A stretch of 64,000 bases of DNA from a phage, in sequence record PX393110.1. The stretch is one strand, 5' to 3'. The position numbers were made by a program, and so were the translations under genes. The notes under the pieces are model-generated. The model was not told where the DNA came from. It did not search any database and worked only from the letters and a program-made list of their open reading frames with translations. Shown here piece after piece: positions 2,976-28,581 of this stretch. Numbering within the stretch: position 1 is the first letter of the stretch; each line of letters opens with the position of its first letter.

Positions 2976-3315
2976 GTCGAACGATGGTATCAATACAGTC
3001 CATATCCATGATAACGAAGATTACAGACTCCCCATTATCTTCCACTACCTTAAGCACCTGCCATCCTTGCTCCATAAAGACTTCTCTCATAGCGGCAAGA
3101 TCTCGCACATGCTTAAGCTCGGTAACTGTAATCACTCTGGGACGAATGAACTTCTTCAGAGTTATCTCGTAAAGATAGGTCCCATGGCTATTGTAGAGAT
3201 TATCTACATTACAGGTATATAGGCCTAACTCCGGACCCCATCCCTGCGATAAGGTCTGGATGAGCTCATAACTAGGCCAATCCCATTTATGCTTACTACG
3301 ATGATACAGAATCAT
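2965..3315 (-). CDS. hypothetical protein
   Basis: 116 aa ORF. Confidence 0.35.
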   Translation of the reverse strand: MILYHRSKHKWDWPSYELIQTLSQGWGPELGLYTCNVDNLYNSHGTYLYEITLKKFIRPRVITVTELKHVRDLAAMREVFMEQGWQVLKVVEDNGESVIFVIMDMDCIDTIVRHEK

Positions 3316-3601
3316 TAGCTACCACCTTATGATAAAATCTTCCGGTAGTGTGGATTACAGTAGCTATGTACTTAGCGTCCACTTCAGTGCCTAGCAGATT
3401 AGATACCGCCTTAATTACAGTTGCTGCTGGGTGTTTATGGTTAATTACCACATCCAGCATCTTACGATCAGCAGATGGGAAGAACTTCTTATTCCGACGA
3501 GCAATATTCTTAACCACCATGTTGGGATCATCGGATGTATAACCAGCTATTGCCATGGTGGTCAATAAGTCGAAGAATTCGATGGGCTTAGTAGACTTCA
3601 T
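3296..3601 (-). CDS. hypothetical protein
   Basis: 101 aa ORF. Confidence 0.35.
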   Translation of the reverse strand: MKSTKPIEFFDLLTTMAIAGYTSDDPNMVVKNIARRNKKFFPSADRKMLDVVINHKHPAATVIKAVSNLLGTEVDAKYIATVIHTTGRFYHKVVANDSVSS

Positions 3602-3676
3602 ATCGTACCTTAACGAGTAAATAAAAATAGGCTGTTAACCGAGGGCGTTCCCCAAGTTAACAGCCTTTGGACCGTA

Positions 3677-4021
3677 TTAAACGGCGGCAGTCAGAAAGTT
3701 ACTGGAGATCAGGAAATCATCCAGAGCTACTTCTGTATTCTTAGGAGTATTGTCTAACTCCCACTCACCCACTCCCAGACGGATCTTAGCCACACCAGGA
3801 GCTATCTCTTCAATAGACAGCTTAGAGCCACCGATGATCTGGAGGCGAAGAGCATTTACAGCTACTGCATACCCAGAGAACGCAGTCTCTACCTGGTGAC
3901 GGAACTCCTGGTCTGAATTAACCTTAGCAGCGTAAGCAGCAGGTTCCATACCCAGTTGCTTAGCATACATCAGATGAAACATGTCCAGGTTAATCTTGTT
4001 ACCAGTAGTCTTCTTAGTCAT
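3677..4021 (-). CDS. hypothetical protein
   Basis: 114 aa ORF. Confidence 0.35.
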   Translation of the reverse strand: MTKKTTGNKINLDMFHLMYAKQLGMEPAAYAAKVNSDQEFRHQVETAFSGYAVAVNALRLQIIGGSKLSIEEIAPGVAKIRLGVGEWELDNTPKNTEVALDDFLISSNFLTAAV

Positions 4022-4538
4022 TTTCGATTTCCTCGGCAGTTACGCCAGTGATGTTTAAATACAGATCGGTCGGTAATTCTGGCAGGGTAGAGACATCCAG
4101 ATTCTCTACGTCCTTGGCCAGAGTTATGTGAGGAGAGTATTCCGCACTGATCTCAGACGGTACCTCCCCAGATGCACGGAGTCGATAGTTAAACGATTGT
4201 AGCAGATCGCTATCGAACGCCAGCACCAGGTAGTTAGCATTCTCACCGAAGATCTCATAGCGAGGATTCTTCAGATGAAGTTTGCTACCTACCAGATCAG
4301 CAATAGTTCCCTCATCCGGAGCACCAGTCCCCGGAGCATACATAAGGGTGCAGTGGTTATCGTGACCGGTATCGAAGTTAAGCTTATCATAATCAGCTAC
4401 TTCAGAGATAACCTGCTTAAGATTATCTATCCAGGCATCAGAGTCTGGACAGAATTTTACCGAGGAGTAACCCTCGTCCACGGACTGTACAAGTCCTAAC
4501 ACTACTTCAGCTTTATTCATTTTTATCACCATGGCCAT
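4014..4538 (-). CDS. 2H-family phosphoesterase (LigT / cyclic-nucleotide phosphodiesterase-like)
   Basis: two H-x-T-x motifs (GHDNHCTLMY and SPHITLAK) about 75 aa apart, the 2H superfamily hallmark. Confidence 0.45.
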   Translation of the reverse strand: MAMVIKMNKAEVVLGLVQSVDEGYSSVKFCPDSDAWIDNLKQVISEVADYDKLNFDTGHDNHCTLMYAPGTGAPDEGTIADLVGSKLHLKNPRYEIFGENANYLVLAFDSDLLQSFNYRLRASGEVPSEISAEYSPHITLAKDVENLDVSTLPELPTDLYLNITGVTAEEIEND

Positions 4539-4825
4539 GGTAGTTTATTTTCGGGCTCCTGCCTATAGTAGGAGCATTTGATACCCAACGATTCCACAAT
4601 ACTTACAGGAATCTTATCAGTTACTTCAGAGTCTTGATAGATTGGTCCGAATACTGATACGTTTGGATCTTGCAACAGTTCAGATATTAATCCAGCCTCT
4701 TCATAAGTCTCGAAGAATGCTGCGGTGGTATCTGGATTACAGCCGAGACCGGTCCATGAGGTGTAAAACTCGTTTACTCCACAGAGAGCACCGTGCTCCT
4801 TATGCACCACTAAAAATCCCAGCAT
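4526..4825 (-). CDS. hypothetical protein
   Basis: 99 aa ORF. Confidence 0.3.
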   Translation of the reverse strand: MLGFLVVHKEHGALCGVNEFYTSWTGLGCNPDTTAAFFETYEEAGLISELLQDPNVSVFGPIYQDSEVTDKIPVSIVESLGIKCSYYRQEPENKLPWPW

Positions 4826-5330
4826 CTGTGTATCCTTTAAGTTTATTTCTATACTTAACCATTTCCTGCTTAGCTATCTCATCACAGAGATTATTTACTT
4901 TGTAGCGAGGATTATTGAACTTCTGATGACCTTTGACATGCTTAACCTTAATGGACTTAGGGTTAAGATCGCGAAGCATTTCCATATGCTTATCTATGAA
5001 TTCCTTTAATGCCCATTCGCAATCGCATTGGACGACTACCCTAACACCATCGAATGCTGTCTTAGTCATGGCAAACCATAGGGTCTTCATGATCCCTTCT
5101 AGCTCTGCCCAGTTATTATCTACAGCAGTAAATCCTCCGCGAGTTATATGAGCTCGCTGCTCACCAGGAAGACGAATCCATCCTCCGAAACCAGCAGCCT
5201 TACTCTTATGACAGTACGATGCATCTGAGAAGATTGTTATATAGCCCGCAGGGTCCAGACCGCGTTCGGGAGTACCCTCGAAGTGGATAACTCTACCAAC
5301 ATCTTTCTCACCGATAGCATGTTTCTTCAT
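4800..5330 (-). CDS. ribonuclease HI-like
   Basis: RNase HI catalytic residues in order: IFSDAS (Asp), NWAELEG (Glu), QCDCEW (Asp), VKGHQKFNNPRYKVNNLCDEIA (His/Asp). Confidence 0.6.
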   Translation of the reverse strand: MKKHAIGEKDVGRVIHFEGTPERGLDPAGYITIFSDASYCHKSKAAGFGGWIRLPGEQRAHITRGGFTAVDNNWAELEGIMKTLWFAMTKTAFDGVRVVVQCDCEWALKEFIDKHMEMLRDLNPKSIKVKHVKGHQKFNNPRYKVNNLCDEIAKQEMVKYRNKLKGYTDAGIFSGA

Positions 5331-6898
5331 TACATATCCACCGTAGTTGCCTGGAACAGACCTACCACCATTTCGTGGGACGGCTTCACGACCGGACTAT
5401 CGAAGTCAATAGAGCTGTTGATGTTCTGGTTAACCATCATCAGGCTACGTACTTCCCAGCAAGCACGATCAGTCAGTACACGGTGAATTGCTGCGGTATC
5501 ACCATCCACGTCCATGTTCTGACCACCCATCGCCATCGGAGGAACCTGAATCTCCTTACCCATGTGAGGTCTGACCTTAAATCCCCATACTGAGTAACGG
5601 TGTAGGGATGGCGCACGGTTCATGAATACCGTAGCATTTTCACACAGTCTCCAGCATACTTCCAGAGCTACTCTGGACTTATTCTTGTACATACGCTGTA
5701 CTTTATTGCTGATGTCGTACATGTTGTACCCTTCGTTAGTCGGGCCACCATATAAGTTCTCCAGCTCACCCAGGATGTCTGGCTGAAGTAATTCGTACAT
5801 CATCTTGAACGGTACACCAAGAGTATCCAGAGGAAGATGCGGAGCCGAAGTAACTACAGAACGACCAGAGTAATCAACACGCTTACCTAACAGGTTACCA
5901 CGAATGCGACCACCCTTGCCTTTAAGGTTATTGATCATCGGCTTAATCAAATTACCGCGATAGTCCTTAGTACCTTCCAGGATTAGTCCGTTAACCATCT
6001 TCTGCATTACAATAGATTCACGAGGAATCAGAGATAACAATGCTTCGCTGGCTTCAGCAGTATCACGAATACTTCTGATACGGATTGCATGGCGCAGGAT
6101 TCGCAGGTAGAGTAAGTTAGTCGGATGATACGACATTACCCCATTACTGATACCGACATCACGGTAGCTCGGAGGATTCACCAGTACTGTAGTGTTATAG
6201 AAGTCGCTGAACTCCGTATAACCACTATTGACTACTGTAGGATCTTCACACTCTTCGATATAGGCTTTCATATCGGCGTGGTTAGCTACCAATGCCTGGA
6301 TAAGACTCAGGAGACCTAATTCCGATGACTCATGCTCGGACATACGACGGATCTTAATCATTACTACTGCGAGGCGCTTCGTGCTATCCTGAACTGGGAT
6401 AGTATTAGAGTAGAACATCGCATACTTCTCACGATCTTCATATTCCGGAAGAGCTGCATTAGACTCACGAACCCGCTCCCGATCATCACCAACCATCTTA
6501 GCTGCCAAACCAGCTTCCTGAACTACGAAGCGGTATCTACCGATAAGGAACTGACCGAACTCTCTCTCTGGAAACCCGAATAACGCAGCCATACGTTTGA
6601 TAGCTAATGGATTCACATAAGGAACGATCGTCTCGATGTGACCCATACGGCGGCGACGGGATTCACGATGCATCGCTACCATACCGCATACATTACACGG
6701 AGGAGCTCCCATAACCAGCTGGTTACCACACTCACACTTACCAGTTACCAGAGGTCCGAATATTCGCTGGCAGAATAGCCCACCAGTGAATGGCTTAGGA
6801 TCATGGAACTTAAGATTATACATGCCCATGTTGGTTACTTCACCACTGGACTCGGCACGGATTACAGCATCAGTTGCAATAGATAACTTTAATTTCAT
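5330..6898 (-). CDS. multisubunit RNA polymerase beta-prime subunit, N-terminal fragment
   Basis: Cys cluster then RRRRMGHIETIVPYVNP (cf. RFGHIELAAPVAHIWF); LLGKRVDYSGRSVVTSAP; NRAPSLHRYS; catalytic NMDVDGD (cf. NADFDGD). Confidence 0.75.
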   Translation of the reverse strand: MKLKLSIATDAVIRAESSGEVTNMGMYNLKFHDPKPFTGGLFCQRIFGPLVTGKCECGNQLVMGAPPCNVCGMVAMHRESRRRRMGHIETIVPYVNPLAIKRMAALFGFPEREFGQFLIGRYRFVVQEAGLAAKMVGDDRERVRESNAALPEYEDREKYAMFYSNTIPVQDSTKRLAVVMIKIRRMSEHESSELGLLSLIQALVANHADMKAYIEECEDPTVVNSGYTEFSDFYNTTVLVNPPSYRDVGISNGVMSYHPTNLLYLRILRHAIRIRSIRDTAEASEALLSLIPRESIVMQKMVNGLILEGTKDYRGNLIKPMINNLKGKGGRIRGNLLGKRVDYSGRSVVTSAPHLPLDTLGVPFKMMYELLQPDILGELENLYGGPTNEGYNMYDISNKVQRMYKNKSRVALEVCWRLCENATVFMNRAPSLHRYSVWGFKVRPHMGKEIQVPPMAMGGQNMDVDGDTAAIHRVLTDRACWEVRSLMMVNQNINSSIDFDSPVVKPSHEMVVGLFQATTVDM

Positions 6899-6913
6899 TT
6901 TAATTTCTCCTAA

Positions 6914-7633
6914 TCAAGGCTTAGCGACGACAGTATAGGCTTCACGAACGATTTCACGAGCTACTTTAGCCGCATGCTGAGTACCACAATACTGATGCAT
7001 GTATTTGAACTGCACAGGTTGCTGCTGGCGAAGATGATTGATATAGCGACGAAGAGTAGGATGGGTGACACTCTGGTCAGCACCACTCACTACCATCATA
7101 AACGCAAACATCTTCAAACTAGCTTCGCGTTTAGCAGGATATTTCTGCATGATGTAATCGATTACACCGTTCACCAGGAGCTTCAGATCACGAGAACGCG
7201 CTATGGGTGATTTCTGGTCTGGGCTAATGGAAGCAGGATCGATTAATTCCACACGACTTTCGCCATCATCGTCCGTTACGAGAGTAGACTCGTTAAAGGA
7301 CATTATGTGACGACGATCCATCGTTTCTTTATCTTCGTGACGAGTATCACCAGTTTTAGCCATATAACCAGTTGGGTTAACTACCCGAAGATACTCATGC
7401 GACACGATAGAGTCGGCAACGTATGGATTATTATTAACACGAGCAATGTTACGGTCTAGCGAACGTAAATCTCCTGAATCTAATGCGCTATCATAGAAGG
7501 ATAAGTCGATGTACTCGTCCCCAGTGTTAGCAATGTTGAATGTTTCATGGAACTTATAGTTAGCGGTCATTGGTCTATCCCAATTAGAGAATTCAAAGAG
7601 CGACCGCGAGGCCGCTCGGTTACCTGCTATCAA
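6914..7633 (-). CDS. hypothetical protein
   Basis: 239 aa ORF between the two beta-prime fragments. Confidence 0.4.
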   Translation of the reverse strand: MIAGNRAASRSLFEFSNWDRPMTANYKFHETFNIANTGDEYIDLSFYDSALDSGDLRSLDRNIARVNNNPYVADSIVSHEYLRVVNPTGYMAKTGDTRHEDKETMDRRHIMSFNESTLVTDDDGESRVELIDPASISPDQKSPIARSRDLKLLVNGVIDYIMQKYPAKREASLKMFAFMMVVSGADQSVTHPTLRRYINHLRQQQPVQFKYMHQYCGTQHAAKVAREIVREAYTVVAKP

Positions 7634-7968
7634 AGCGCGAAGTAATACCAGTCACCATAAACGCGAATCAGCACTTCCTGACTTTCTGCATCCACATTAG
7701 TGAAGTAGAAGCTACCAAATCCGAACTCCAGAGACTCACCAGTCTGCATGAGATCTGCCATTTCATCCATGAACTTATCGAAGTCCGGATCACGGTCCTG
7801 AACTACAGCGACTTCCACCTCCTTGGTGTACAATTCAGAACGACCAATATGAGGAGCAACCTGGCGGAACTCCATTACAGCACCACGAGCCAGATTTTCC
7901 TCAGCAGCATCCCGAACAGAGGCAGTATCGATTGTAGCGAAAGACTTAATTGCATTTAAACGTGACAT
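7630..7968 (-). CDS. hypothetical protein
   Basis: 112 aa; 4-nt stop/start overlap with upstream gene; conserved leader AATTTGGAGCTAATACTATG. Confidence 0.4.
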   Translation of the reverse strand: MSRLNAIKSFATIDTASVRDAAEENLARGAVMEFRQVAPHIGRSELYTKEVEVAVVQDRDPDFDKFMDEMADLMQTGESLEFGFGSFYFTNVDAESQEVLIRVYGDWYYFAL

Positions 7969-8004
7969 AGTATTAGCTCCAAATTAGATTATCCAGTGAA
8001 GCGC

Positions 8005-8075
8005 TACCGCGCCCCACCCAAAAGAACGGGCTTTATGAGCTCCCAAAAATCGGTTATTTGAAAAATAAATTTCAA
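8005..8075 (-). promoter_or_regulatory. class-2 conserved intergenic element, copy B
   Basis: CGCGCCCCACCCAAAAGAACGGGCTTTATGAGC...TCGGTTATTTGAAAAATAAA; same architecture as copy A. Confidence 0.4.
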
Positions 8076-8768
8076 TTATTTTTGGTTAGGAGGCATCTTG
8101 CGAGAACGACGATAGTTGATCATCGTACATGCACAGTTACGCTTATCCTGAGTCTCATAGATAATTGCGCTGGATAATTCCACATTAGACAATAGCAGAG
8201 TCATTACCCGACCTTGGGAAGACAGATCCTGGATGCGCTGCTTATTGATGCACTCTCTTACGGTTTCCTTAGAGTACAGCTTACGATCTCTACGTCCGCA
8301 AGTAATCACGTCTTCTATGGGGACCACCATATCCCCTAGTTCCTTGATTATGAAACGATCATCTGTTATGATAGTAGGGAACGACTTCAATAGTTCTTCC
8401 ACAATCCGTAGAATACCATTGCCCATTCCGTAATACCGCCGATTACTAATATCGTCAATAAGATTATGTCGATATTTTTCATTAATGTAGGTCTTGTGAG
8501 TAGCCAGCAGATAGTACAGTTGCATACCACCGAACCCTTCACATGCCAGATTTCTCCGGAGTACCGCCTTACTTCCTGCGATAGTGAAGTTTCTGATAGG
8601 ATACCAATCAGTAGTCCAAAAGTCGTCTATGTCGTCTATATGCGACTCTATTCCATTATACCAGACTGGTTGTAGGGCATCTGTACCTATGAATTTACGA
8701 CCCTCGTAGCATATACTGTCCCCTACCGTATGGATCAGCAGGGGATTATAGATCTTGCCCACATCCAT
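8076..8768 (-). CDS. hypothetical protein
   Basis: 230 aa ORF. Confidence 0.4.
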   Translation of the reverse strand: MDVGKIYNPLLIHTVGDSICYEGRKFIGTDALQPVWYNGIESHIDDIDDFWTTDWYPIRNFTIAGSKAVLRRNLACEGFGGMQLYYLLATHKTYINEKYRHNLIDDISNRRYYGMGNGILRIVEELLKSFPTIITDDRFIIKELGDMVVPIEDVITCGRRDRKLYSKETVRECINKQRIQDLSSQGRVMTLLLSNVELSSAIIYETQDKRNCACTMINYRRSRKMPPNQK

Positions 8769-8776
8769 CTCCCAAG

Positions 8777-10291
8777 TTATTTGTTATTCAGATTTAACCC
8801 AGCAATGATCATCTCGGAACGGGTTCCGAAGCTAACATCACCATTAAGCACTGCCGAGGTAAGACGCTGCTTAACGTTACCGTGGCCAATAGACTTCAAC
8901 CAGCTAGGGTGCTTCGTAGGGATAGCATCAGCTTTAATCGCCAGTACCTCACCCTTATCACCCATGCTGCGAACACCGATTCGTCCGTTATTCATCTTAA
9001 CCAGATCAGTACAACCACGAGCAATGATCTCATGGTGAATCGATGCGATACCGATACCGATGTCGTCGAAGATGTGCTTAAGCTGGATTGATGCTAGCTC
9101 TGCACCCTTAATAGCCGACCCAGCTTCGTGAGCAAGATCCGTGATGCACTTATACTTAGACTCGGATACCTGAGCTACCGCAGTACCTCTACCACCTACC
9201 GTCTTCAGGATGTCAGCCAAGGTATTACTTACCGAAGTACCGAATTCCTTAAGAGTAGTCGAGCCAGATGTATGCTTACCACGAAGACCAGCCTGGGTAG
9301 ATGGTTCGGAGATATGCTGCGCCGACGCCGTTCCAATACCGAAGTTAATCGGGAAGAAGTTAGCTGGTTTAGCCGGATCCATACCGCAGCAATGCTGACA
9401 TACCCCACCCTTAGTCGATTCACAGGTAATCGGGCTAAGGACTTTAACGTTACCCTCTTCATCAGCTAACTGATCAACATTCTCCTTAGTGATCAGTACT
9501 CGATCATTAGTGAATCGATACAGTGCCGATTTCTTAGGTAGGGTAATCACTTCCTTAGTTCCGCAATCTTCTTCCACAATAGACAGCTCACGAGAGCAGT
9601 TAACCAGCTGACGAGCGAACCAGCCAGTCGCAGGTACCAGGAAGAAGTTACCAGCCAGACCCTTACGAGCAGGTCCGCAGGTGTTGAAGTAGTTGATAGG
9701 AGACAACCCGGAGCTTAAGTTCTCCATAATCGGCATCGGCATGATCTTACCAGTCATACCTACCAGAAGACCCTTAGCTACTACCATCGAGCGAACCTGG
9801 GGAGGAGATACACGAGCGCCAGATACACCCATCGCATACAGAGGATTATGACGGTCTACCTCTTTGAACCAGCGATCAGTACATTCGTTGATCACCTTAT
9901 CAGCAGCCACCAGACGATCCTCGTACTTCATCTTACCGAGTTCCTGGGTCATTGATGGGAAGTCGATACCGAAGTCAAACTTAGTGTCGTCATAGCACAA
10001 GCTAAGTCCAGACATAGTTGCTTTATGGAACCCGAACTGCTGCAACTTATGGAGTCTACGCCCAGCTACTTCCGGAGTGTAGTTATTATTGATGTGAGAG
10101 ACGATCTTCGCAGATTCCTTCTTATCGATTTCTTTTTCTGGAAGATAGCCACTGATTTCCCAAATAAACAGTCGACCGATAGTAGTTTCTTTAGGACCAT
10201 CAGAGAAGTAAAAACGCACCGGAGTGGTGTAGGTTGCTTCTTTCATATCAATAAGACGGTGTAATTCATTCAAGGACTTTGATACGATCAT
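8777..10291 (-). CDS. multisubunit RNA polymerase beta-prime subunit, C-terminal fragment
   Basis: GIGTASAQHISEPSTQAGLRGKHTSG matches the beta-prime region GxxAAQSIGEPGTQLTMRTFHxGG. Confidence 0.65.
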   Translation of the reverse strand: MIVSKSLNELHRLIDMKEATYTTPVRFYFSDGPKETTIGRLFIWEISGYLPEKEIDKKESAKIVSHINNNYTPEVAGRRLHKLQQFGFHKATMSGLSLCYDDTKFDFGIDFPSMTQELGKMKYEDRLVAADKVINECTDRWFKEVDRHNPLYAMGVSGARVSPPQVRSMVVAKGLLVGMTGKIMPMPIMENLSSGLSPINYFNTCGPARKGLAGNFFLVPATGWFARQLVNCSRELSIVEEDCGTKEVITLPKKSALYRFTNDRVLITKENVDQLADEEGNVKVLSPITCESTKGGVCQHCCGMDPAKPANFFPINFGIGTASAQHISEPSTQAGLRGKHTSGSTTLKEFGTSVSNTLADILKTVGGRGTAVAQVSESKYKCITDLAHEAGSAIKGAELASIQLKHIFDDIGIGIASIHHEIIARGCTDLVKMNNGRIGVRSMGDKGEVLAIKADAIPTKHPSWLKSIGHGNVKQRLTSAVLNGDVSFGTRSEMIIAGLNLNNK

Positions 10292-10310
10292 TACTTAATT
10301 CTCCAAATTA

Positions 10311-10626
10311 TTATGCAGCTACGGATAAGTTTTCAAGGTAACTAACCACTCGGTCGGAATGGCGGAAGATCTTCGGATCCTGAGGTAAGTCAGTCGCGAA
10401 GTTGTGGAAGATCTTGTAGTAGATCTCCCGACGCTGCTCGTCGTTCTTATGAGGAACTCGAACAGTTATGGAAATAGTCTGATCTCCCTTATCCACCAGG
10501 ATGTACGGGAAACCTGTAGAGGAAGCAAATACCCCACGGTAGTTAACACGGTCGAACAGATTACTGAGCATCTGATACGATTTACGCTGGCGGAAAGTAG
10601 CCTTAGACGGATCAAAGTACTGCATT
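10311..10626 (-). CDS. hypothetical protein
   Basis: start refined to MQYFD (ATG 10624-10626) preceded by GGAG. Confidence 0.3.
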
Positions 10627-10956
10627 GATAATCTCCTCAGCCTGATGATCAACCAGGAATACTCCACACTGACCATCATAACCAATACGTTGTGCATTAA
10701 AGCCATACACAGTAATAACTTCAGATATGCCGTCGATAGGATCAGTTTCACCAGTACGAATCACTGGGTAGCGACCAGACAGGATATACTGCTCAATCAC
10801 CATGGCCCAGTGATCGTTATGAGACGACCCAGCCACAATCTTATCAGGCTCGGTGAGGATCAGGTCAGCGAACTTACGCAGAGCGGCCTCCTCGAAGCCA
10901 TCAACATCTGCCAAGGTCACCAGACCATGTTCCTTCTTGAACTCGTCACTAATCAT
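10612..10956 (-). CDS. hypothetical protein
   Basis: 114 aa ORF. Confidence 0.35.
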   Translation of the reverse strand: MISDEFKKEHGLVTLADVDGFEEAALRKFADLILTEPDKIVAGSSHNDHWAMVIEQYILSGRYPVIRTGETDPIDGISEVITVYGFNAQRIGYDGQCGVFLVDHQAEEIINAVL

Positions 10957-11419
10957 AAAGCCTCCAGAACTAAGTGGACGTTATTCCCTACGCTGTCATT
11001 TACAACGATATGGGATTTAAACTTATACATTTCGTTGATCACATCGGTCATGTGAATCACCGGAATATACACTCGGTCAGAACCAACTACTGCAACTTCA
11101 TTAAGCCAGTCGTAGTCGATTTCATGGGTCTTCAGAAGATTTATGAGATCACGGTACATGAAGCTTACAGACTTGATTCCGCCACTCATACGAGCAGCCC
11201 AGTCTGTAGCAGGGACGGATTCGATTTCCTTCCTACCTTTCATCTTACGGCGAAAGATGGCGGACTGAACGTTCCATAACTCTGAGAATTCTTGATCGGG
11301 GATTTCTCGACCATGCTTGGTCCGGGAGACCAGTCGAGCTTGAGGATCGGCATTAGGACGGAACTGCTCAGCAATAGAAGGAGCAGCTTGTTGGAAGGCA
11401 GCGAAAAGGGATGTAGACA
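10953..11419 (-). CDS. hypothetical protein
   Basis: start refined to MSTSLF (ATG 11417-11419) with GGAGAAAG upstream. Confidence 0.4.
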
Positions 11420-11469
11420 TGACTTTCTCCAGTCTTTCAAGGTCGCAGGCAACGCGACGGATCATTCGG

Positions 11470-11535
11470 CGGGGAACGCCCCGCGCCCAAGTTAACGGGC
11501 TGCAGAGCGCTCCAGACTTCGTTTTATTTTTGGTT
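11470..11535 (-). promoter_or_regulatory. class-2 conserved intergenic element, copy E (divergent)
   Basis: GGCGGGGAACGCCCCGCGCCCAAGTTAACGGGC...TTCGTTTTATTTTTGG. Confidence 0.35.
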
Positions 11536-11817
11536 TTGAGCTTGCTGGAACATCTTGGTGATTTCCAGCATCAGGTCACGGTAGTCAGAAGTCTGAACTC
11601 CTTCCAAACCGTAGTCGGCAATGATTGACTTGAAGTAGTTCATACCGTCCTGGAGGTTATTGAACTCCAGAGGATCTTCAGCCATCGCCAGGTAGACTTC
11701 GGACATAACCACTGGACGGCCATCTTTCTCATCAACGAAAGCAACCAGAACAGCCAGCTCATCTTTGTCAGCAACTGTAGGATTGGAAGAGAAACCGAAG
11801 TTTTTAGCAGTAAACAT
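11524..11817 (-). CDS. hypothetical protein
   Basis: start refined to MFTAKNF (ATG 11815-11817); leader AATTTGGAGCTAATTATG. Confidence 0.4.
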   Translation of the reverse strand: MFTAKNFGFSSNPTVADKDELAVLVAFVDEKDGRPVVMSEVYLAMAEDPLEFNNLQDGMNYFKSIIADYGLEGVQTSDYRDLMLEITKMFQQAQNQK

Positions 11818-11854
11818 AATTAGCTCCAAATTATAACGAACCGTGAAGCGGCCA

Positions 11855-11940
11855 ACCCGCCCCACCCAAAAGAACGGGCTTTAGGACCTCTCAGAGTTCG
11901 TTTTATTTTTCAAAAACATTTCAATAATGAAAAATATTTT
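11855..11940 (-). promoter_or_regulatory. class-2 conserved intergenic element, copy C
   Basis: CCCGCCCCACCCAAAAGAACGGGCTTTAGGAC...TTCGTTTTATTTTTCAAAAA. Confidence 0.4.
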
Positions 11941-11964
11941 TGAAAAATAGGCCATCCTTGGCCT
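11941..11964 (-). terminator. intrinsic terminator-like hairpin
   Basis: minus-strand RNA: AGGCCA-AGGA-TGGCCT followed by AUUUUUCA, directly after the stop of the 487-aa gene. Confidence 0.45.
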
Positions 11965-11970
11965 AATGAA

Positions 11971-13434
11971 TCAGCGAGCTTTGCTGATTGCCTGGGTAAT
12001 ACGTTGGGACTGTTTACGCCAGGATTGCTGCAGACGAGGATTAAGCTTCATGATTACAGACATAATCATGGCCAGTACTCCACGCTTAGCCTTAGGACTA
12101 CCAGACTTAGCATCCTTCAGGTATTTACGAGCCACAGTTTTAATATCCTGGGATGGCCAGGTCTTAACGACTGGTGACTTAACCTGCTTAGCCAGCGCTA
12201 CGAAGATGACCAGAGTGCTGATAAGGTCGGAGGTACGTACAGAACCTTTACCGCCCATCAGTACTTCGATAACCTTGTTAACGCGACGGAGCACTTCCGA
12301 CGGAGCCGCTTCGTCTACTCCCTCAGGCATAGCCGTACTCTCAGCAGCAGATAGCTTCCAGGAGTTAGCAGTAGCCATATCGGTAGTGTAGCATGCGGAC
12401 AGATCATCGTCGGATGCTTCGGACAGATTCATGAACTCGTTCTTAGTCGGGTTCCAAACCATGTCCTTGTACTTAATGTACCAGCGACCACCATCGTCTT
12501 TGATCATATCAGGGACTTCTCCCTTAGACAGATCTTCGTTGACAGATCGTCCCATCAACCAGCGGTAAACAGGTTTCAGATCCCAGCGACCGTCAGGAGT
12601 AACCTTCACATCCTGGCCAGTCAGATCCTTAATTACCTGAGTTACGTTATCGCCAGTCTGGTTGATCTTATGGTTAGTCACCAGCTGCGCTACGGACTTC
12701 TTATTACCCTGATCGTCGGTACGTTCTGCACCACGTAAGATCATGGTGGAGTTAATCTGGTCCATAGTGAATCCAGCATCGATAAGACGCTTGATCTGAG
12801 CCATGACCTGATCATACTCCTTCGGTAGATCGTCCACAAACTCGTTGAGCTGCAGACCAGCACCACTCGTCATGCTACCACGACCTGCCGCATCACCAGT
12901 AATCAATCGGGCAATTACCACTAGCTTAGAGCTGGAAGATAGTTTAGGATGGTTGATAAACTTATCTAAAAAATCGTTTATCGTAGTGATCTCTTCAGGG
13001 TTATTATTTCTGTTGCTGGCAGCCAACTCTGTGAACATACCCATAGCAGAACCATCCGGAGTCTCATAAGCATCCATCATGTTCAGCTGGGTAGAGCCAC
13101 CTTCGCCATCTTCCGCAAAGAATGCATCAGCAGAGAACGTACCAGAACGAACTTCTTTCTGTACGAACTCTCGTAGCAAATTCTTAGCCATCTGCTGGGG
13201 CATCATCATAAGATAAGAATAGTAGTCACGCAGGTTAGCATCACTGGTATTCTGCATCTTGCGGAACATAGTATACCATTGACTGCTCTTACCATTCTTC
13301 TCGATGTCAGCGACAGCGTGATCAATCATACGCTGGTCGATGAAACGCTCTACCGAGGCTAGATCCTCGTCCACTATTTGTTCACTCATCAACAGAGTGA
13401 GTAAATTTTGGGCCTTAGTCATTATTTTCTCCAA
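11971..13434 (-). CDS. hypothetical protein (487 aa)
   Basis: long uninterrupted ORF; no recognisable catalytic motif. Confidence 0.45.
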   Translation of the reverse strand: MEKIMTKAQNLLTLLMSEQIVDEDLASVERFIDQRMIDHAVADIEKNGKSSQWYTMFRKMQNTSDANLRDYYSYLMMMPQQMAKNLLREFVQKEVRSGTFSADAFFAEDGEGGSTQLNMMDAYETPDGSAMGMFTELAASNRNNNPEEITTINDFLDKFINHPKLSSSSKLVVIARLITGDAAGRGSMTSGAGLQLNEFVDDLPKEYDQVMAQIKRLIDAGFTMDQINSTMILRGAERTDDQGNKKSVAQLVTNHKINQTGDNVTQVIKDLTGQDVKVTPDGRWDLKPVYRWLMGRSVNEDLSKGEVPDMIKDDGGRWYIKYKDMVWNPTKNEFMNLSEASDDDLSACYTTDMATANSWKLSAAESTAMPEGVDEAAPSEVLRRVNKVIEVLMGGKGSVRTSDLISTLVIFVALAKQVKSPVVKTWPSQDIKTVARKYLKDAKSGSPKAKRGVLAMIMSVIMKLNPRLQQSWRKQSQRITQAISKAR

Positions 13435-13458
13435 TATGTCGACATAAAAGGATGATGA

Positions 13459-14184
13459 TCAGTCATCCTGGGTAGAAGCTCCTTCCTTAAGTTTAGCTTC
13501 TAATTTCTCCCGTATTAACGGAAGGAATTCTATTCTCCTAACTTCTGTATGGCCACTCTGGATAATATGCTTGACTAGGTCGTAGTCGACTCTAGGAGTA
13601 GATACTTTAATATCATACTCTAAGTCAGTGGCATCTAATTTATTCATCTTAAAGAATTCGGGAATAACATTACGTATCCTGGAGTGTGGATCGTTAGTCA
13701 CTCCTATTTTCACGAACGAGTCGTCCACTACCCAAATATAAAAATAGCACTCTTCATTAAGAGAGGCTAGAGCTATCTGCCTATCACAGCTAGCTCGTTT
13801 CTCTGGATCAGAGTAAGTTTTACGTATAGATTCTGCATTCTTTAATCTAAAATTTGGATCCTTCTGATTCTCTACAAATATTTTCCTAACGACATCTCTA
13901 TGTTTAGGATAATTATTACTGCATGTGGTGCTGCAGAAGTTAGAGTGACCTTGAACTAATCCACGGAAAGTAGACTCTCCTCCACAGTTTAGACATACGC
14001 CATACCCAGGATCAGTTATAATATCCTTAGGTATGTCTAGCGCAGTTTTATTGTGGCACTTCCGGAGATGGACACCAAATGATCTCTTATAATTATAAGA
14101 GGTATCTGGATCGTCGCAATACGGACAAATCCATCTTTGCGTGGTAAAGTTGTAATACTTACTCAGAAACTCTTCATGTGTCAT
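13459..14184 (-). CDS. zinc-finger protein with T5orf172/MUG113-like (GIY-YIG superfamily) C-terminal domain
   Basis: N-terminal CxxC...H...CH and CLNCGG...C clusters; C-terminal YFYIWVVDDSFVKIGVTNDPHSRIRN. Confidence 0.35.
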   Translation of the reverse strand: MTHEEFLSKYYNFTTQRWICPYCDDPDTSYNYKRSFGVHLRKCHNKTALDIPKDIITDPGYGVCLNCGGESTFRGLVQGHSNFCSTTCSNNYPKHRDVVRKIFVENQKDPNFRLKNAESIRKTYSDPEKRASCDRQIALASLNEECYFYIWVVDDSFVKIGVTNDPHSRIRNVIPEFFKMNKLDATDLEYDIKVSTPRVDYDLVKHIIQSGHTEVRRIEFLPLIREKLEAKLKEGASTQDD

Positions 14185-14263
14185 AATATTCTCCGCTTAG
14201 AATAAAATGGGCTAGATGGTGAAGCGGCACCATCAGGGGAGCTACCCTTTTCGCCCAAACACT

Positions 14264-14294
14264 TTAACAGCCTTTCGAGTCATCAAAAGAGCGG
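14264..14294 (-). promoter_or_regulatory. class-1 conserved motif TTAACAGCCTTT-N9-CAAAAGAGCGG (plus-strand reading), copy 1
   Basis: one of 18 same-orientation copies, each in the short spacer upstream of a minus-strand gene start. Confidence 0.45.
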
Positions 14295-14296
14295 TT

Positions 14297-14566
14297 TTAT
14301 CGAATTAGCCCATACTTCCATGCCATTACATGCGCAGGTTCGTTATGAGCGAAGAATGCGGTACCCTTCTTGGTAGTAAGCACCAAACACGGCTTATTTC
14401 CCATCATATCAGCCATGCTAGCTACCACAGTCTTCTCAGACCCAGGCTTAGCCGGATCAATGCCCATAGCTATTTTATGAGCAGTTGTCTTACCAGGACG
14501 TCTCGGATTAGATACCAAGACTTTAGGGGAGGTCTTTCGGCCACCCTTACGCTGCTTTCTCGCCAT
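14297..14566 (-). CDS. hypothetical basic protein
   Basis: 89 aa ORF with Lys/Arg-rich N-terminus. Confidence 0.3.
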   Translation of the reverse strand: MARKQRKGGRKTSPKVLVSNPRRPGKTTAHKIAMGIDPAKPGSEKTVVASMADMMGNKPCLVLTTKKGTAFFAHNEPAHVMAWKYGLIR

Positions 14567-17500
14567 GTTTAGGCTCCAGAGTTATTTTAGCCTTAAGCTC
14601 GATATACTTACATCCCCAGCCTGTACCGTCGGAACGAATACCGGATTTGGAGTTGAAGCTGTTAGCTATAGAGTTTAACTTCTCCTTCTCCTTAAGGATC
14701 TCTACGTATGGAGTCCACTGGCTATACTGATCGAGAGCTTCCAGTAGTTTCTCCAATGCAGACTCACGACCCTCAACGATCAGCCATCCGGAACCATCTT
14801 CGTTAACTCCATAGTCATCCAGACCCATCAAGGAACCGCCCCGAGCACCGAATTCGATATCAGTGCGCATAGGCATATCCCAGAGTTCACGAATAGCCCC
14901 CTCCATATTCTCACGAGTCTTCTGGAACACCTTGAACATCTCGTTGATTCCGGATGTGGTATCCAAGGAGTCGTGGACCATGATGTGAGTCTCGGCCTCC
15001 ATATTGGACTGCTTAAAGTCCTCATCCAGGAAGTACATACCTGCGCCAGCAACCATCGACGAAGTATTCTGGATAGGATAGTTCACCGAAGTAGAGTTAA
15101 CGTTGGTACCTTCCAGGTTGATACGGTTACCGAAGTAACCATAAGCATACCCAGTCTCGAAGCCATTTTTCTTGGTAGCATCAATCCATGCCTTAAGACC
15201 GGTAAACTTACCGAATACCGTGTCCATCAGATTCTGAGCACGCTCCATATCACCACCAGTAGCAACCATCGCTACCGATTCAAGGCTAGACTGGTATACT
15301 AATGCGAAGTTAATCGCCTTACCACCCTTACGCTCAACATCAGTTACTTCAGGTTCAGACTTCTGGTATGCAATCGAGCTAACGAATCGGTGCATGTCGC
15401 CACCAGATAAGAATACGTTCTTCATATCCGAGTCATCGGCGAACACGCTAACCATCACCAGCTCAGCCTGGCTAAAGTCCTGGTGGTACCACAGGCCACC
15501 CTCCGGCTTAGATACCCAGATGTTACGCAGAGTACTGTCGCCAGGAACGTTATGAATACCTGCCTGCCAACGAGATGTAATCGCAGCCAACGAGTTAAAG
15601 TCCGGAGTCATGATGTAGCAATCTTCACCATCCTGCAACTTCGGATTATCCCAGTCGTACTTACGAACTCGCAGCGGAGGTAAACCATCACGTAGTTTAG
15701 CTGCCCATACCGTCTGGCGTCCTACCTTACCATCAATGTATGTAGCAATCTGTTTGTAGTGACGCTTATACATCTTCAGGTCAACCATCATACGGAACGA
15801 TGTATTCCAGGTAGACTCGTCATCCGGATTAACTCCCAACATCAACTGGTGAATAGCCAATTGGGCATCGAGAACATCCGCTTTAAACTTATTCGTGAAT
15901 CGCTCTTCATAAGCTTCCAGACCGTCCTGGACGCACATGGCAATTAACTCCCGAACATGCTTAGACTCAGCAGTATCCCCGAATTGGATGATCCTGGTTA
16001 AGATCTCATCTACCGGAAACTCCCGGAAGAATTCCCTCTCCAGCTTCTCCGAATCCTTAGGCACGAACCCCTTAGAGATCGCCAGCAGGGTTTTATCCCA
16101 GTAGTCATGCACCTTAAGCTGGTCCATTACAGACCATAGCATGGTACACATCTCTACTTCATCAGTAAGATAGGCTTTCCAGAACTTCTCCTTATTAGCC
16201 TTATCGTTACTGTTAGGGTTGAAGAATCCTGACAGATCAGCAATCTTCCCAGCCAGAGTAGTAACCATCTTACGGCGCTCTTGTCCACCAGGAGTGTACC
16301 ATACGTTCTCGTACGGCAACTCTCGATAGATAAAGTCGCGAGCTGTAAGCATCTGGTCAGGAGGTAACTTAAGGTTAGGGATTAGGCTAACCAAGTGCTC
16401 CGACATTTTGCTCATGCAATAGTCGTACTCTTTAGTCGCCTCTTCGTCATCCCAACGAATACCGTTAGCTTCGAAGATAGATGCCAGGTATGGATGTAAC
16501 ATATATACGTTATACCCATCCTTATACTTATCGTAAAACATCTCGTGGATGAACACACCGTACGCGGAGTCATAGCAGCAGTACTCCCCAAGAATCTCAC
16601 GAGGAATCGCACCCCACTCATATGGGTAGAACGATGCCAAGTAAATAATCTCGGATTCTTCGAGCTCCTCCGATAGTTCGGCTATCTTATCCAGCATAAA
16701 CTGGTTGAAGTTAACAGGAATACGATTCTTAGCCGCCTTAGTCGGAGCCGCTTCCACGAGTTTCTCGTACTCAGCTTTAAGAGCTAGGTGATGCTCAATA
16801 TTGAACTCGCCAGACTGAATCTCTGCAATCTGCTCAGGAGTACAACGCTTCTTCATATCCTTGAAGATAGCTGCCCAACGATCCTTCCATTCGTGTACCG
16901 ACCCTTCCCAGAAGTCTGCATGTAAATAACGACGAGCAGCATCTTTCAACGAGCTCCGTTCGCCATGCATAGTCAGAGTTACAATCGCATCGATAAACTT
17001 GCAGAATACGTCTAACCAATGCCACGTAGTCTTAATCTCGTACGGACAGTTAAACGCCACGATCTGCTCCTGGAACTTAACCAGGAAGTCACGCAAGAAT
17101 CCTAGCTGTTCCGGAGTCTCTTTACCGGTAACATTGTACCATACGGACTTGGCATCCTTATCACCAATCTTCTTAGCGATACTGAATCCAGTGATCCGGA
17201 AGTCTACCGAGAATAAATCAGCTGCGTTAGACTCATAGTCGAGGCCGAGATAGCCTTTGTACCCAGACCACATAATGTCGTTAAGGAACTCCTGGAGGCC
17301 GTTCCAGTCGACGAATTCCCACTCTACATTATATTCGGATTCTTTCTGGCCGAATACCAGAAACTTAAAACGATCAATCCACGAATCAAGTATACCAGGA
17401 TCAGAATCCAGATTACGTTCAACCTGGGCATGGTGCATGACTACAGCTAGCTTAAAGTTATACTCCGGTATGTTACCCAGAGGGAACTTCAGTAGCTTAT

Positions 17501-23361: not shown

Positions 23362-24333
23362 CTAGCTAAACTTATACCAGCGAGGTCTCATACGGATCTC
23401 GTGATTCAGTTTATGTAGTTTCGAGAATTCGCAGAATGAGTTGGTGAACATCTGGCGAGTATAGAATCGCTCATCCTCTGGCATGAAGTGGAACCATTTC
23501 TCCGGTTCCCATGAATACCCGAAATGTGCACATATCTCTTTGATGTTCTGATACCACCATTCCACGAATACCTGATAACCACAGGGAGGATTCTGGTCAT
23601 TAATCATGTACCATACCCCATCCTGAGTCCCAGGTCCACATACGATAGCGTCATTATCTGTATACGCAGTCTCTTTAGAGTAGGACATAGTTGCCCAGCA
23701 TTGATATGCCATGAACGGACCTAATCCAGATACCTGTAACAGATGCTCGATAGCCTCGGTAGCGAACGGAGACTTCCATGCCCATAAGATAGGATCACTG
23801 TAGGTCTTCACCAGATAGGCTCTGGCAGCTACACTGTACTTAATATCCTCTGGACATACTTCATTAGCCATCTTAACTGCTGTGCTAAGGAAGTAGGCAT
23901 TTGATTGCTGTGGAGCGGTGAACGGAGGACCATCCTCATAACGACGTAGCTCTTCGCGACCCATGTTATGTATGTCGTCATAGCTCATCTCATAAAGAGG
24001 AAGGACTCTGCGGAAGCGATCCATATATGAATCACCACGGTTTATCATCTGGAAGAGTACTACATTAAGTGCTTTACTCTCCCAGCTTAAAGAATCGTTC
24101 TCCAGAATGTTCTTAATAGCCCACACTGTTTCACGATCGTGCTTACGGAACACGTTAGTGAATTTGAACTTACTAATCCACTTATGTTCCGTCCACGGAG
24201 GAGGCAGCTTAAGCACCTCCTTCTTATAATAAACCTCTGTACGTTCACGGTTATACTCCACATACTCCCGTAACTCCTCAGGATTTATCATCCCAAGGAG
24301 TCCTTCGTAATGCAGACCTAACGGTGTTGACAT
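23362..24333 (-). CDS. hypothetical protein (323 aa), translationally coupled to upstream GT
   Basis: start ATG overlaps upstream stop (TAATG at 24331-24335); Trp/aromatic-rich, no recognisable motif. Confidence 0.45.
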   Translation of the reverse strand: MSTPLGLHYEGLLGMINPEELREYVEYNRERTEVYYKKEVLKLPPPWTEHKWISKFKFTNVFRKHDRETVWAIKNILENDSLSWESKALNVVLFQMINRGDSYMDRFRRVLPLYEMSYDDIHNMGREELRRYEDGPPFTAPQQSNAYFLSTAVKMANEVCPEDIKYSVAARAYLVKTYSDPILWAWKSPFATEAIEHLLQVSGLGPFMAYQCWATMSYSKETAYTDNDAIVCGPGTQDGVWYMINDQNPPCGYQVFVEWWYQNIKEICAHFGYSWEPEKWFHFMPEDERFYTRQMFTNSFCEFSKLHKLNHEIRMRPRWYKFS

Positions 24334-27179: not shown

Positions 27180-27210
27180 TTAACAGCCTTTTAGGTCATC
27201 AAACAGGCGG
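27180..27210 (-). promoter_or_regulatory. class-1 conserved motif, copy 6
   Basis: TTAACAGCCTTTTAGGTCATCAAACAGGCGG; overlaps the 3' end of the transporter gene. Confidence 0.4.
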
Positions 27211-28581
27211 AGTTTCCTTAGCCAAGAATACTTTAGGTACAAAGATCTTGAGGAACCCGAATAGAATACACAATACCCCAATCAGTACCGGAACAGCCGA
27301 TACAGCTACCAGAGTCTTCGTTACAGTTACTACGTCGCCACCTGCCCAGTTAAGTGCAGCAGCAACTACACCCATGCTTACAATCCAGAATACACGAGTT
27401 CTAGGAGCGGTCATGGACTCTACCGTAATACCTGCTGAGTCATGACCTGTAATAAAGAACAGGATCACAGACACGAGGGTAATTACCGAGAATATCCATC
27501 CGCCTGGGAAATTAGCCAGAAGCTGGAAGATATCCTGAGCACCATGTTGTAGACCAGCTACACCGAATACGGTAAACCAGACGTTACTGATGATGGTAGG
27601 GAACAGTACACATCCGAGGATCAGTTCGCGAATAGTACGGCCGTAAGAGATACGTGCCACAAACGCTCCGACGAATAATGCCCAACCTACCCAGGCTGCA
27701 TAGTAAGCATAAGGCCAGCTAGCCAGCCATTGCTTCTCTTCAGCAGTACTGCCGATGTTTACTGACATAGGAATAATCTGGAGCAGATAGCTACCAGAAT
27801 AGGTGATGGTCTTCCAGAGGTATTCGAAGAATGTACCACTTACAGCAACGAATGCCATAATAGATAGAGCTACGATTACATTATATCTGGATAACCACTT
27901 AACCCCACGATCGACACCAGTTACGGCACTAAGTACAGTACCCAGAGTCAGGAGCGCGATAATGGTGTAAGGACCAACATCCACTCCCAGGAACTCTTTA
28001 AATCCGGAACTGATCGGGCCTACTGCGTAGACGAACGACAGGGTTAAGCCTATGATGGTAGAGAAGAGTAAGCTTATCGTATTAAGGTTATTCAGAGCTC
28101 GGGACTTGAATAACTGATTAAGCGGACGGTCTTCACCACGTACATGCAGTAAGTACCCGAATGCCACCCCTACGACTGCATAAACTGCCCATGCGTTAAG
28201 TCCCCAGTCAAAGAAGGTAGTTACCATATTCTGACGTTCGGACATACCCTCCTGCTGATGGTACATAGGTTCGAGTACACCATAATAAATCATGGATACA
28301 CCCATACCGGTACTAAACATCATGGAGTAATAGGTAAAGCGATTATATTTCGGAGCACCTTTACCCAGCTTAATGTTACCATGCTTGCTGAATACAAAGA
28401 ATGCCAGGAACGCTAGGAAGATCAGCGAAGACCAGGTAAATATGAATCCATACTGAGATATGAATACAGACTTACTCCAGTCCATTACAGCACCAAACTG
28501 GGTGGGAGCTAACATAATGGCGAGTATGATACCCACCGTTACTAGCACCGTCCCCCAGGTAACTACCTTTGAATCTGACAT
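27199..28581 (-). CDS. BCCT-family (betaine/carnitine/choline-type) secondary transporter
   Basis: multi-TM protein; FSKHGNIKLGKGAPKYNRFTYYSMMFSTGMGVSMIYYGVLEP (cf. FSRYGNIRLG...WFAMLFxAGMGIGLxFxGVxEP) and VGAFVARISYGRTIREL (cf. GMFLARISRGRTIREF). Confidence 0.7.
   Translation of the reverse strand: MSDSKVVTWGTVLVTVGIILAIMLAPTQFGAVMDWSKSVFISQYGFIFTWSSLIFLAFLAFFVFSKHGNIKLGKGAPKYNRFTYYSMMFSTGMGVSMIYYGVLEPMYHQQEGMSERQNMVTTFFDWGLNAWAVYAVVGVAFGYLLHVRGEDRPLNQLFKSRALNNLNTISLLFSTIIGLTLSFVYAVGPISSGFKEFLGVDVGPYTIIALLTLGTVLSAVTGVDRGVKWLSRYNVIVALSIMAFVAVSGTFFEYLWKTITYSGSYLLQIIPMSVNIGSTAEEKQWLASWPYAYYAAWVGWALFVGAFVARISYGRTIRELILGCVLFPTIISNVWFTVFGVAGLQHGAQDIFQLLANFPGGWIFSVITLVSVILFFITGHDSAGITVESMTAPRTRVFWIVSMGVVAAALNWAGGDVVTVTKTLVAVSAVPVLIGVLCILFGFLKIFVPKVFLAKETPPV

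Follow-up and report, generated by a model that had tools for sequence, protein, structure and literature searches.

A stretch of 64,000 nucleotides of phage DNA from the sequence record PX393110.1, called the window in what follows, encodes on its minus strand the β′ subunit of a multisubunit RNA polymerase (RNAP) in the form of two separate genes. The present analysis concerns these two genes, named β′N and β′C here, the genes that accompany them and the repeated intergenic elements found around them. Between positions 5000 and 10600 the window is 96.7% identical to Escherichia phage vB_EcoM_IME392 (MH719082, 116,460 bp), in which position 16127 corresponds to window position 5000, and 93% identical to phage EP_H11 (111,373 bp). 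The window represents some 55% of the genome; for the parts lying beyond it, the complete sequence of IME392 (loci L001-L003), being 96.7-97% identical, served as a proxy.

5330..6898, minus strand: β′N, the N-terminal half of β′ (522 amino acids, aa), with the zinc-binding domain, clamp helices, switch 2, NRAPSLHR and NMDVDGD
8777..10291, minus strand: β′C, the C-terminal half of β′ (504 aa), with the F-loop, bridge helix, second zinc site and trigger loop

The two halves of the β′ subunit

The original prediction, made from the sequence alone, had read these two open reading frames (ORFs) as one β′ divided in two, and both the coordinates and the assignment were confirmed. Pfam domains RNA_pol_Rpb1_1 (3e-14) and Rpb1_2 (3e-23) were found in β′N and Rpb1_5 (3e-12), Rpb1_3 and Rpb1_4 in β′C, and alignment to the β′ of Escherichia coli placed Rpb1 domains 1-5 in collinear order across both halves. 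The top matches among solved structures were bacterial β′ subunits (E. coli, Francisella), also collinear, with E values of 3.6e-50 for β′N and 3.6e-29 for β′C, and the best 60 PDB matches were all bacterial. Profile and structure comparison with RpoC thus assigned both products to the β′ family and not to a non-RNAP family. The predicted content of the 522-aa product also stood, since it carries a CxC...CxxC zinc-binding N-terminus plus ...GGQNMDVDGDTAAIH..., which includes conserved β′ segments and the catalytic loop NMDVDGD, and the 504-aa product carries GIGTASAQHISEPSTQAG as had been described.

An alignment of the window β′, E. coli β′ and eleven phage relatives showed that both zinc sites, the Asp triad, switch 2 (GRIRGNLLGKRVDYS; form GRxRGNLLGKRVDYS), NRAPSLHR, the F-loop, the bridge helix and the trigger-loop equivalents of R933 and H936 are kept, with loss of the second zinc site in the Vibrio relatives. 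These signatures persist across relatives that are just 28-53% identical to the window protein. The loop NMDVDGD turned out to be a lineage-specific variant, a point that the earlier reading had missed; relatives have NADFDGD or NADYDGD, and the three Asp are invariant. With bacterial RpoC (E. coli, Francisella), the window β′ aligns collinearly over the stretch that runs from the zinc-binding domain up to conserved region H. Unlike it, the window β′ is only about 27% identical to the E. coli protein, is split at about E. coli residue 515, where β′N ends just past the GLYYMT-equivalent segment, has its two genes in reversed order, and lacks the E. coli segments 947-1130 (SI3) and approximately 1340-1407 (the extreme C-terminus, that is, the last 65 residues or so). 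A further difference is that it is phage-encoded, without a cognate rpoB, rpoA or rpoZ.

The ratio of nonsynonymous to synonymous substitution rates (dN/dS) between the window and EP_H11 was 0.032 for β′N and 0.033 for β′C. With its motifs conserved, a dN/dS of about 0.03 and a gene that has been colonised by an intron or an intein in relatives, this β′ is functional-looking, and its motifs predict a compact, bacterial-type and catalytically competent subunit. As for the intervening elements themselves, a group I intron (L010:11293-11604; Rfam RF00028, 66 bits, E 2e-16) interrupts β′N of the Acinetobacter phage Ab1-TPeters exactly at the catalytic loop, and the deposited annotation shows fragmented 'hypothetical proteins' at this place. 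The β′N gene of locus L017 contains an intein with an HNH domain.

Absence of a detectable β or α subunit

The six-frame translations of the window and of the whole IME392 genome, cut into stop-to-stop frames no shorter than 40 aa, were searched for the remaining core subunits with phmmer --max. With E. coli RpoC as query, the two halves were recovered at 1e-52 and 1e-25; with E. coli RpoB, nothing was found below E = 9. The closer probes YerA41 gp139 and Carin-5 gp186, which are 925-aa phage β subunits, gave no match in the same sequences. Regular expressions for the β motifs RHGNKG, GEME, NxED and MQRQ found none, and a Pfam batch on 125 IME392 ORFs gave no strong Rpb2 match among the best 25 of 104 families. 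No relative of RpoA was found. The earlier statement that the window has no β homolog was therefore borne out and extends to the complete IME392 genome (RpoB, the YerA41/Carin-5 β and a β profile as probes), where the β fragments proposed to lie in the rest of the genome were not found either. The description of the locus as a phage-encoded multisubunit RNAP holds for the β′ and is overstated as a whole, since just one of the two catalytic subunits is present.

The distribution of β among phages led to the same result. A tblastn search with RpoB of 50,697 phage records detected β in YerA41, GN1, Carin-5, Arash, the Vibrio D69 group and jumbo phages; it gave no β for any of the 18 records with a β′ of this clade. 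Among 66 viral-contig loci collected with a β′N profile, most other clades have β beside β′, often as one β-β′N ORF followed by β′C. In IMG/VR contigs L024-L077 and L080, for example, β is fused to the N-terminal half of β′ in an ORF of about 1450-2100 aa and a separate β′C gene comes after it. The contigs nearest to the window, L018 and L019-L023 (the latter with unsplit β′), are without a visible β. Because β is easily seen in the other clades where it is present, its absence is a property of this clade: β and α are undetectable in complete IME392, and none of the clade's genomes shows a β.

The β′ genes themselves are already annotated in GenBank. In the IME392 record (L001 16457-18025), β′N is labelled 'beta subunit' and β′C 'beta prime subunit'; the first label is wrong, and the two give the false impression that both catalytic subunits are present. 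Together with the annotation of the partner genes as hypothetical, they hide the problem of the missing β. No discussion of the absence of β, of the partner genes or of the promoter-like element was found in the searchable literature.

The β′ clade and its gene order

The search of the 50,697 phage records with β′N (tblastn, E<=1e-20) returned a distinct set of mid-sized phages together with bacterial contaminants, and no jumbo phage. The isolates in this set infect Escherichia, Acinetobacter, Ralstonia, Vibrio and Rhizobium; their genomes range from about 110 to 208 kb, and several carry genes for thymidine hypermodification.

Escherichia, Acinetobacter and Ralstonia phages: IME392; EP_H11; Acinetobacter Ab1-TPeters (110 kb); Ralstonia RP13 (171 kb)
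Vibrio phages: 1.031.O, Va2 and 150E35-1 (128-161 kb)
Rhizobium phages: ten RHph records (154-208 kb, family Kleczkowskaviridae)

The protein database added about a dozen metagenomic members of the clade, and the next matches were ordinary bacterial β′ subunits at about 30% identity. Identity to E. coli β′ is 26-32% in the window clade and 23-24% in YerA41 and Carin-5, which have their own β.

Both halves lie on the minus strand of the window, and β′C (10291→8777) is transcribed ahead of β′N (6898→5330), which the original prediction had also missed. In RP13 the order is the opposite, N and then C. The β′ is unsplit in the Rhizobium phage TM30 (1127 aa), in Va2 (1192 aa) and in 1.031.O (1263 aa); the IME392 and RP13 lineages have it divided near E. 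coli residue 515, and the split of the YerA41 β′, at about residue 636, is an independent event. Three ORFs separate the halves in the window (6914-7633, 7630-7968 and 8076-8768). They had been taken as unrelated to the polymerase; two of them, Y and Z, proved to be conserved partners, and the 112-aa ORF alone is an orphan. The loci L014, L015 and L016, whose β′N is 37-39% identical to that of the window, have X (415-567 aa) first, then Y (184-197 aa), β′N, β′C and Z (208-229 aa). L013 (β′N 47% identical) shares the arrangement of the window, where X comes first, β′C, Z and Y follow further on, and β′N and an RNase H-like gene close the row. Read from these gene orders, the two blocks Y-β′N and β′C-Z have changed places in the window. 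The origin of the split by simple insertion of mobile DNA into one gene was rejected, because the halves stand in C-to-N order with Y and Z accompanying them. The reversed order, with Y and Z each travelling with its own half, needs a block rearrangement.

Conserved partner genes

The families X, Y and Z were defined by iterative profile searches of the relatives' loci.

6914..7570, minus strand: Y, directly upstream of β′N; readable back to a TTG at 7633; family of about 190-220 aa
8076..8768, minus strand: Z, the gene that comes right after β′C and, in TM30, right after the unsplit β′; family of about 210-237 aa
11971..13434, minus strand: X, between the DNA polymerase gene and the β′ genes; family of 403-584 aa

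Y has 13 members; all β′ relatives examined possess it, TM30 in the form of two paralogs. Its C-terminal domain of five helices (taken from a weak model) ends in a conserved L..YvG[ST]R..A...R, and by eye this end segment looks like a helix-turn-helix. No Pfam, PHROG, PDB-profile or fold match was obtained for Y, and no recognisable σ2 or σ4 domain was found in the Pfam, PHROG and PDB-profile searches; its AlphaFold2 (AF2) model, from a single sequence, has a predicted local distance difference test score (pLDDT) of 44. A weak collinear match (66 columns, hhalign E 0.007) links Y to an ORF of about 200 aa in the same position in Carin-5, a slot shared by YerA41 and Carin-5. The Carin-5 record names this ORF 'RNA pol sigma factor', and the paper states no basis for the label. 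A role of Y as specificity factor is accordingly a lead, not a result.

Z has eight members, including RP13 ORF151 and TM30 gp329, and matched no known family in Pfam, PHROG and profile searches. Only an I-T-D motif is invariant in it, no basic residue is conserved, and it is not α-like. X, which gave no match in Pfam or PHROG, has six members (the window, EP_H11 and L013-L016); the viral contig L018 contains it together with Y and Z. It is predicted to be almost wholly α-helical (AF2 with a five-sequence alignment, pLDDT 55, a weak model); on this model it is not recognisable as β, and its helical content is unlike that of a β subunit. A weak alignment (E 0.027) was obtained between X and the protein occupying the equivalent slot in Vibrio phages. 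Neither X nor Z was detected in the loci of Va2, 1.031.O and Ab1, and X is also missing from RP13 and TM30.

One segment of X, ETPDGSAMGM, resembled the fork-loop-2 of β (ETPEGPNIGL, within E. coli β 552-591) at E 0.01-0.02 with a profile of 20 β sequences. This candidate was rejected as a chance match, because the motif is not kept in the family of X itself and because profile-profile comparison of X, Y and Z against β gave nothing. The enzymes of phages phiKZ and AR9 are present in the PDB, and comparison of the X, Y and Z profiles with solved structures gave nothing at E<=10. No fifth subunit of the type of gp68 or gp226 was recognised in these profile searches; such proteins evolve very fast, and the models obtained here are too poor to compare folds. 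Foldseek searches of the PDB with the poor models of X and Y returned noise alone (best E 0.4 and 1.4).

The dN/dS values between the window and EP_H11 were 0.066 for X, 0.015 for Y and 0.054 for Z. Values of 0.015-0.066 across β′N, β′C, X, Y and Z show that all five are functional genes. From their positions across genomes, Y and Z are read as conserved partners that travel with β′N and β′C, respectively.

Repeated intergenic elements

The conserved intergenic motifs noted in the original prediction exist, and two classes were distinguished. The class I core, AAAGGCTGTTA, occurs in 19 exact copies in the window, with 20 sites when one mismatch is considered, against 0.8 expected and a maximum of 4 in 100 shuffles. 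All 19 copies lie on the minus strand ahead of minus-strand genes and span positions 3658-50255. Aligned, they form a bipartite element of about 40 nt, aaCCGCTCTTTTga.g..TCGAAAGGCTGTTAAa.TGT.ggAgg, also written CCGCTCTTTTga.g..TCGAAAGGCTGTTAAa.TGT. Most of the early and middle genes have it in front of them. The sequence TGnTAAAnT in its 3′ part is by eye like an extended −10, and no −35-like hexamer stands at the right spacing. The IME392 genome has 25 class I copies, all on the strand of the early genes. The element is absent from the plus-strand late region of the window, so the late genes must use another signal. Relatives carry variants of class I; in L014, for instance, CCGAACGTAAA...AAAGCCTTTTAAAAG occurs five times, including upstream of the Y-β′N and β′C genes.

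Class II, AAGCCCGTTCTTTTGG(GTGGGGCG...), occurs four times, with 0.28 copies expected. Those at 8018 and 11866 have nearly identical ribosome-binding contexts downstream (AATTTGGAGCTAAT..ATG), which suggests that class II may be either a mobile promoter-plus-ORF cassette or a second class of promoter. An analog of class II in L013, GCGAGTTCTTTTGG, is located directly upstream of its Y gene, and analogs stand in equivalent positions.

14241..14295 (14265), minus strand: class I element, CCGCTCTTTTGATGACTCGAAAGGCTGTTAAAGTGT; heads the block with X and, further down, the β′ genes
11840..11890, minus strand: class II element (11866), TAAAGCCCGTTCTTTTGGGTGGGGCG...GCTTCAC; preceded by X and a terminator-like hairpin (11948-11965), with the small ORFs and β′C-Z downstream
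7990..8040, minus strand: class II element (8018), after Z and ahead of the 112-aa ORF and Y-β′N
2908, 8018, 11866 and 34283, with a variant near 11500, minus strand: class II copies, ahead of small orphan ORFs

No class I copy is found between 3658 and 14265. A scan of positions 3000-15000 for σ70-type promoters gave 13 sites, fewer than the 20.7 of shuffled sequence. Both classes are good candidate promoters. Since the RNAP genes lie downstream of such elements, at least one class must be recognised while phage β′ is still lacking, unless virions carry the enzyme.

Genome context and neighbouring genes

The minus strand of the window encodes functions of replication and nucleotide metabolism (PolA, helicases, a topoisomerase II, a fused SbcCD, thymidylate synthase and a 5-hydroxymethyldeoxyuridine (5-hmdU) DNA kinase), and the plus strand, from about 50.3 kb, encodes terminase, capsid and tail genes. 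The β′ module sits amid the replication genes and adjoins the DNA polymerase gene and an RNase H-like gene. The other ORFs of the module and its borders are the following.

4800..5330, minus strand: RNase H-like gene (176 aa), overlapping the β′N stop codon
7630..7968, minus strand: orphan ORF of 112 aa between Z and Y, with a class II element ahead of it
10311..11865, minus strand: four small ORFs (146, 114, 170 and 113 aa) between X and β′C
13459..14184, minus strand: orphan ORF of 241 aa, the first gene behind the class I element at 14265, with the DNA polymerase gene on one side and X on the other

L013 has the RNase H-like gene in the same place, after β′N, and Vibrio phage 1.031.O has it too. 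The four small ORFs are conserved among close relatives only, and the 112-aa ORF is absent from EP_H11 and from all the other relatives examined. The 241-aa ORF gave a weak match (2.5e-6) to the endonuclease family PHROG 681, with 121 modular matches in proteins of widely differing length, and no ortholog was found at the relatives' loci; it is probably a mobile gene of the homing-endonuclease type, outside the β′ module.

A YerA41-type DNA polymerase has been reported as common to IME392, RP13 and RHph_TM30, among others (PMC12686479). A genome analysis in a 2025 preprint suggested hypermodified thymidine for RP13, EP_H11 and IME392 (spelled 'EcoM_IME92' there), and the β′ module may, speculatively, be tied to this modification of the group's DNA. 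In its passage on these three phages, the preprint states that a 5-hmdU DNA kinase 'could not be detected'. A clear 5-hmdU DNA kinase (PF18723, E 5e-35) is encoded at 23362-24333 on the minus strand of the window, and the statement may therefore need revisiting.

Three further observations concern the minus strand. A full-length transporter of the betaine/carnitine/choline (BCCT) family (PF02028, E 4e-92) is encoded at 27199-28581 among nucleotide-metabolism genes and is an unusual gene for a lytic myovirus. The ORF at 34385-37150 (921 aa) joins an N-terminal calcineurin-like phosphoesterase domain, SbcD/Mre11-like, to an SbcC/Rad50-like ATPase with a zinc hook and appears to be a fused SbcCD. 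Two transfer RNA genes (46982-47054 and 47203-47276) lie within a long gene-poor stretch, 46185-48268, which also contains several class I elements.

Comparison with known systems

The non-virion RNAPs of phiKZ and AR9 resemble the window system in being phage-encoded, in having β′ cut after the catalytic barrel, in lacking α and ω and in having phage-specific partners of unknown family. They are split enzymes of five subunits, with two β polypeptides and gp68 or gp226 as the fifth subunit, and are without α or ω (PMC7598289). Unlike them, the window phage has no detectable β, its β′ is far nearer to bacterial β′ than to that of jumbo phages, and its genome measures 111-116 kb. YerA41 and Carin-5 belong to the same supergroup as the window phage (PolA fused to uracil-DNA glycosylase), have an ORF of about 200 aa directly upstream of β′ and carry the module near the DNA polymerase gene; the β′ of YerA41 is also split. 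In contrast to the window, both encode a β of about 925 aa immediately after β′.

The division of β′ after the catalytic barrel is also seen in the RpoC1 and RpoC2 proteins of cyanobacteria and plastids, and cyanobacterial RpoC2 is among the good matches of β′C. However, the window β′C begins about 40 residues earlier than RpoC2 in the alignment of that match, its gene precedes that of the N-terminal half, and cyanobacteria have a full set of β, α and ω. Other phages redirect the host machinery with components of their own. In T4 (gp55/gp33 and MotA/AsiA) and SPO1 (its sigmas), the σ factor is replaced or modified or co-activators are added, and phage components thereby direct host machinery to phage promoters, a likeness that would apply here if the phage β′ works with host subunits. 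None of these systems is known to replace a catalytic core subunit.

A possible hybrid phage-host RNA polymerase

A two-barrel polymerase requires the β barrel, which supplies basic residues opposite the Asp triad of β′ (PMC7824862, PMC7598289). The puzzle posed by this clade is that all known polymerases of this type need both barrels, yet it keeps an intact β′ under strong selection without β. The most economical explanation, to which a probability of roughly 0.4 is given, is that β′N and β′C pair with the β and α2 of the host as the core of a hybrid phage-host RNAP, because the β′ is intact and strongly selected, no β or α is detectable, and this β′ is more bacteria-like than that of the neighbours that own a β. 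The two halves would assemble onto host-made β and α2 and give a hybrid core. Y, always present and adjoining β′N, would be the specificity or initiation factor for the phage-specific bipartite intergenic elements, which we infer to be read by this polymerase, and X and Z would be accessory, assembly or host-β′-displacing factors.

Several points weigh against this explanation. No precedent for a phage β′ joining a host β was found in the searchable literature. At about 27% identity to E. coli β′, retention of the large β-β′ interface is uncertain, and because the host core is stable, the phage would depend on newly made or freed α2β. X, Y and Z, conserved and of unknown fold, leave room for a non-canonical partner, and the models of X and Y are too poor to exclude anything beyond secondary-structure content. 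The RNAP subunits of YerA41 are virion-associated and include its own β (PMC7354516), which places a self-sufficient enzyme nearby in phage space.

The main alternative, rather unlikely though a serious prospect, is that the phage makes its own complete enzyme, a five-polypeptide RNAP resembling those of phiKZ and AR9, with a cryptic β that has diverged, and perhaps been fragmented, among X, Z or other ORFs. The conservation of X, Y and Z, their synteny with β′ and the strong purifying selection on them would fit such a role, as would the β genes that the DNA-polymerase relatives YerA41 and Carin-5 have beside β′; split enzymes of five subunits without α or ω are established in jumbo phages (PMC7598289), and the AF2 models are too poor to exclude unusual folds. 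However, an invisible β beside a β′ that matches bacteria at 1e-50 demands extremely unequal divergence, and in YerA41 and Carin-5 both subunits are still detectable. The proteins themselves also argue against it: X is predicted to be almost entirely helical, Z is invariant only in I-T-D and has no conserved Lys or Arg like the active-site residues of β, the profile-profile and profile-PDB searches of all three were empty, the lone β-motif match in X is not kept in its family, and X and Z go undetected in several of the relatives, as listed above.

A β′ that acts as a modifier or decoy, binding host β, σ or nucleic acid for shut-off or re-programming, or that serves another templated activity such as priming, is improbable. 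The absence of β and the location of the module among replication genes, beside a DNA polymerase and an RNase H-like gene, speak for it. However, there would be no call for such a protein to preserve the Asp triad, the bridge helix, both zinc sites and the Arg and His of the trigger loop across such divergent relatives, and one that binds host β with its active site intact would in practice be a hybrid enzyme. The view taken in the original prediction, that of a sigma-independent split RNAP of the phiKZ/AR9 type, with the β fragments lying beyond the window, is very improbable. The division of β′ after the catalytic barrel is as in jumbo phages, and the window contains only part of the genome, but β is missing from both complete genomes, that of IME392 (97% identical) and that of EP_H11. 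The likeness failed on other grounds as well, as the β′N relatives at E<=1e-20 include bacteria and no jumbo phage, bacterial β′ gives the best matches, the β′ is split at about residue 515, the defining β halves are absent, and a genome of 111-116 kb is not that of a jumbo phage.

Should β merely have diverged, the result would be a second-barrel subunit that extends the known sequence space of the family. If the hybrid core of phage β′ and host β/α2 is the right explanation, a clade of mid-sized phages replaces β′ alone of the host polymerase, and the hybrid, together with Y, Z and X, would read phage-specific promoters. Such phages could then be the first viruses found to swap a catalytic core subunit of a cellular transcriptase, as opposed to adding a σ factor or encoding a whole polymerase, a claim that is put forward tentatively. 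This would represent a new mode of host takeover, and it would bear on the assembly of RNAP, on the interchangeability of the β-β′ interface and on resistance to inhibitors.

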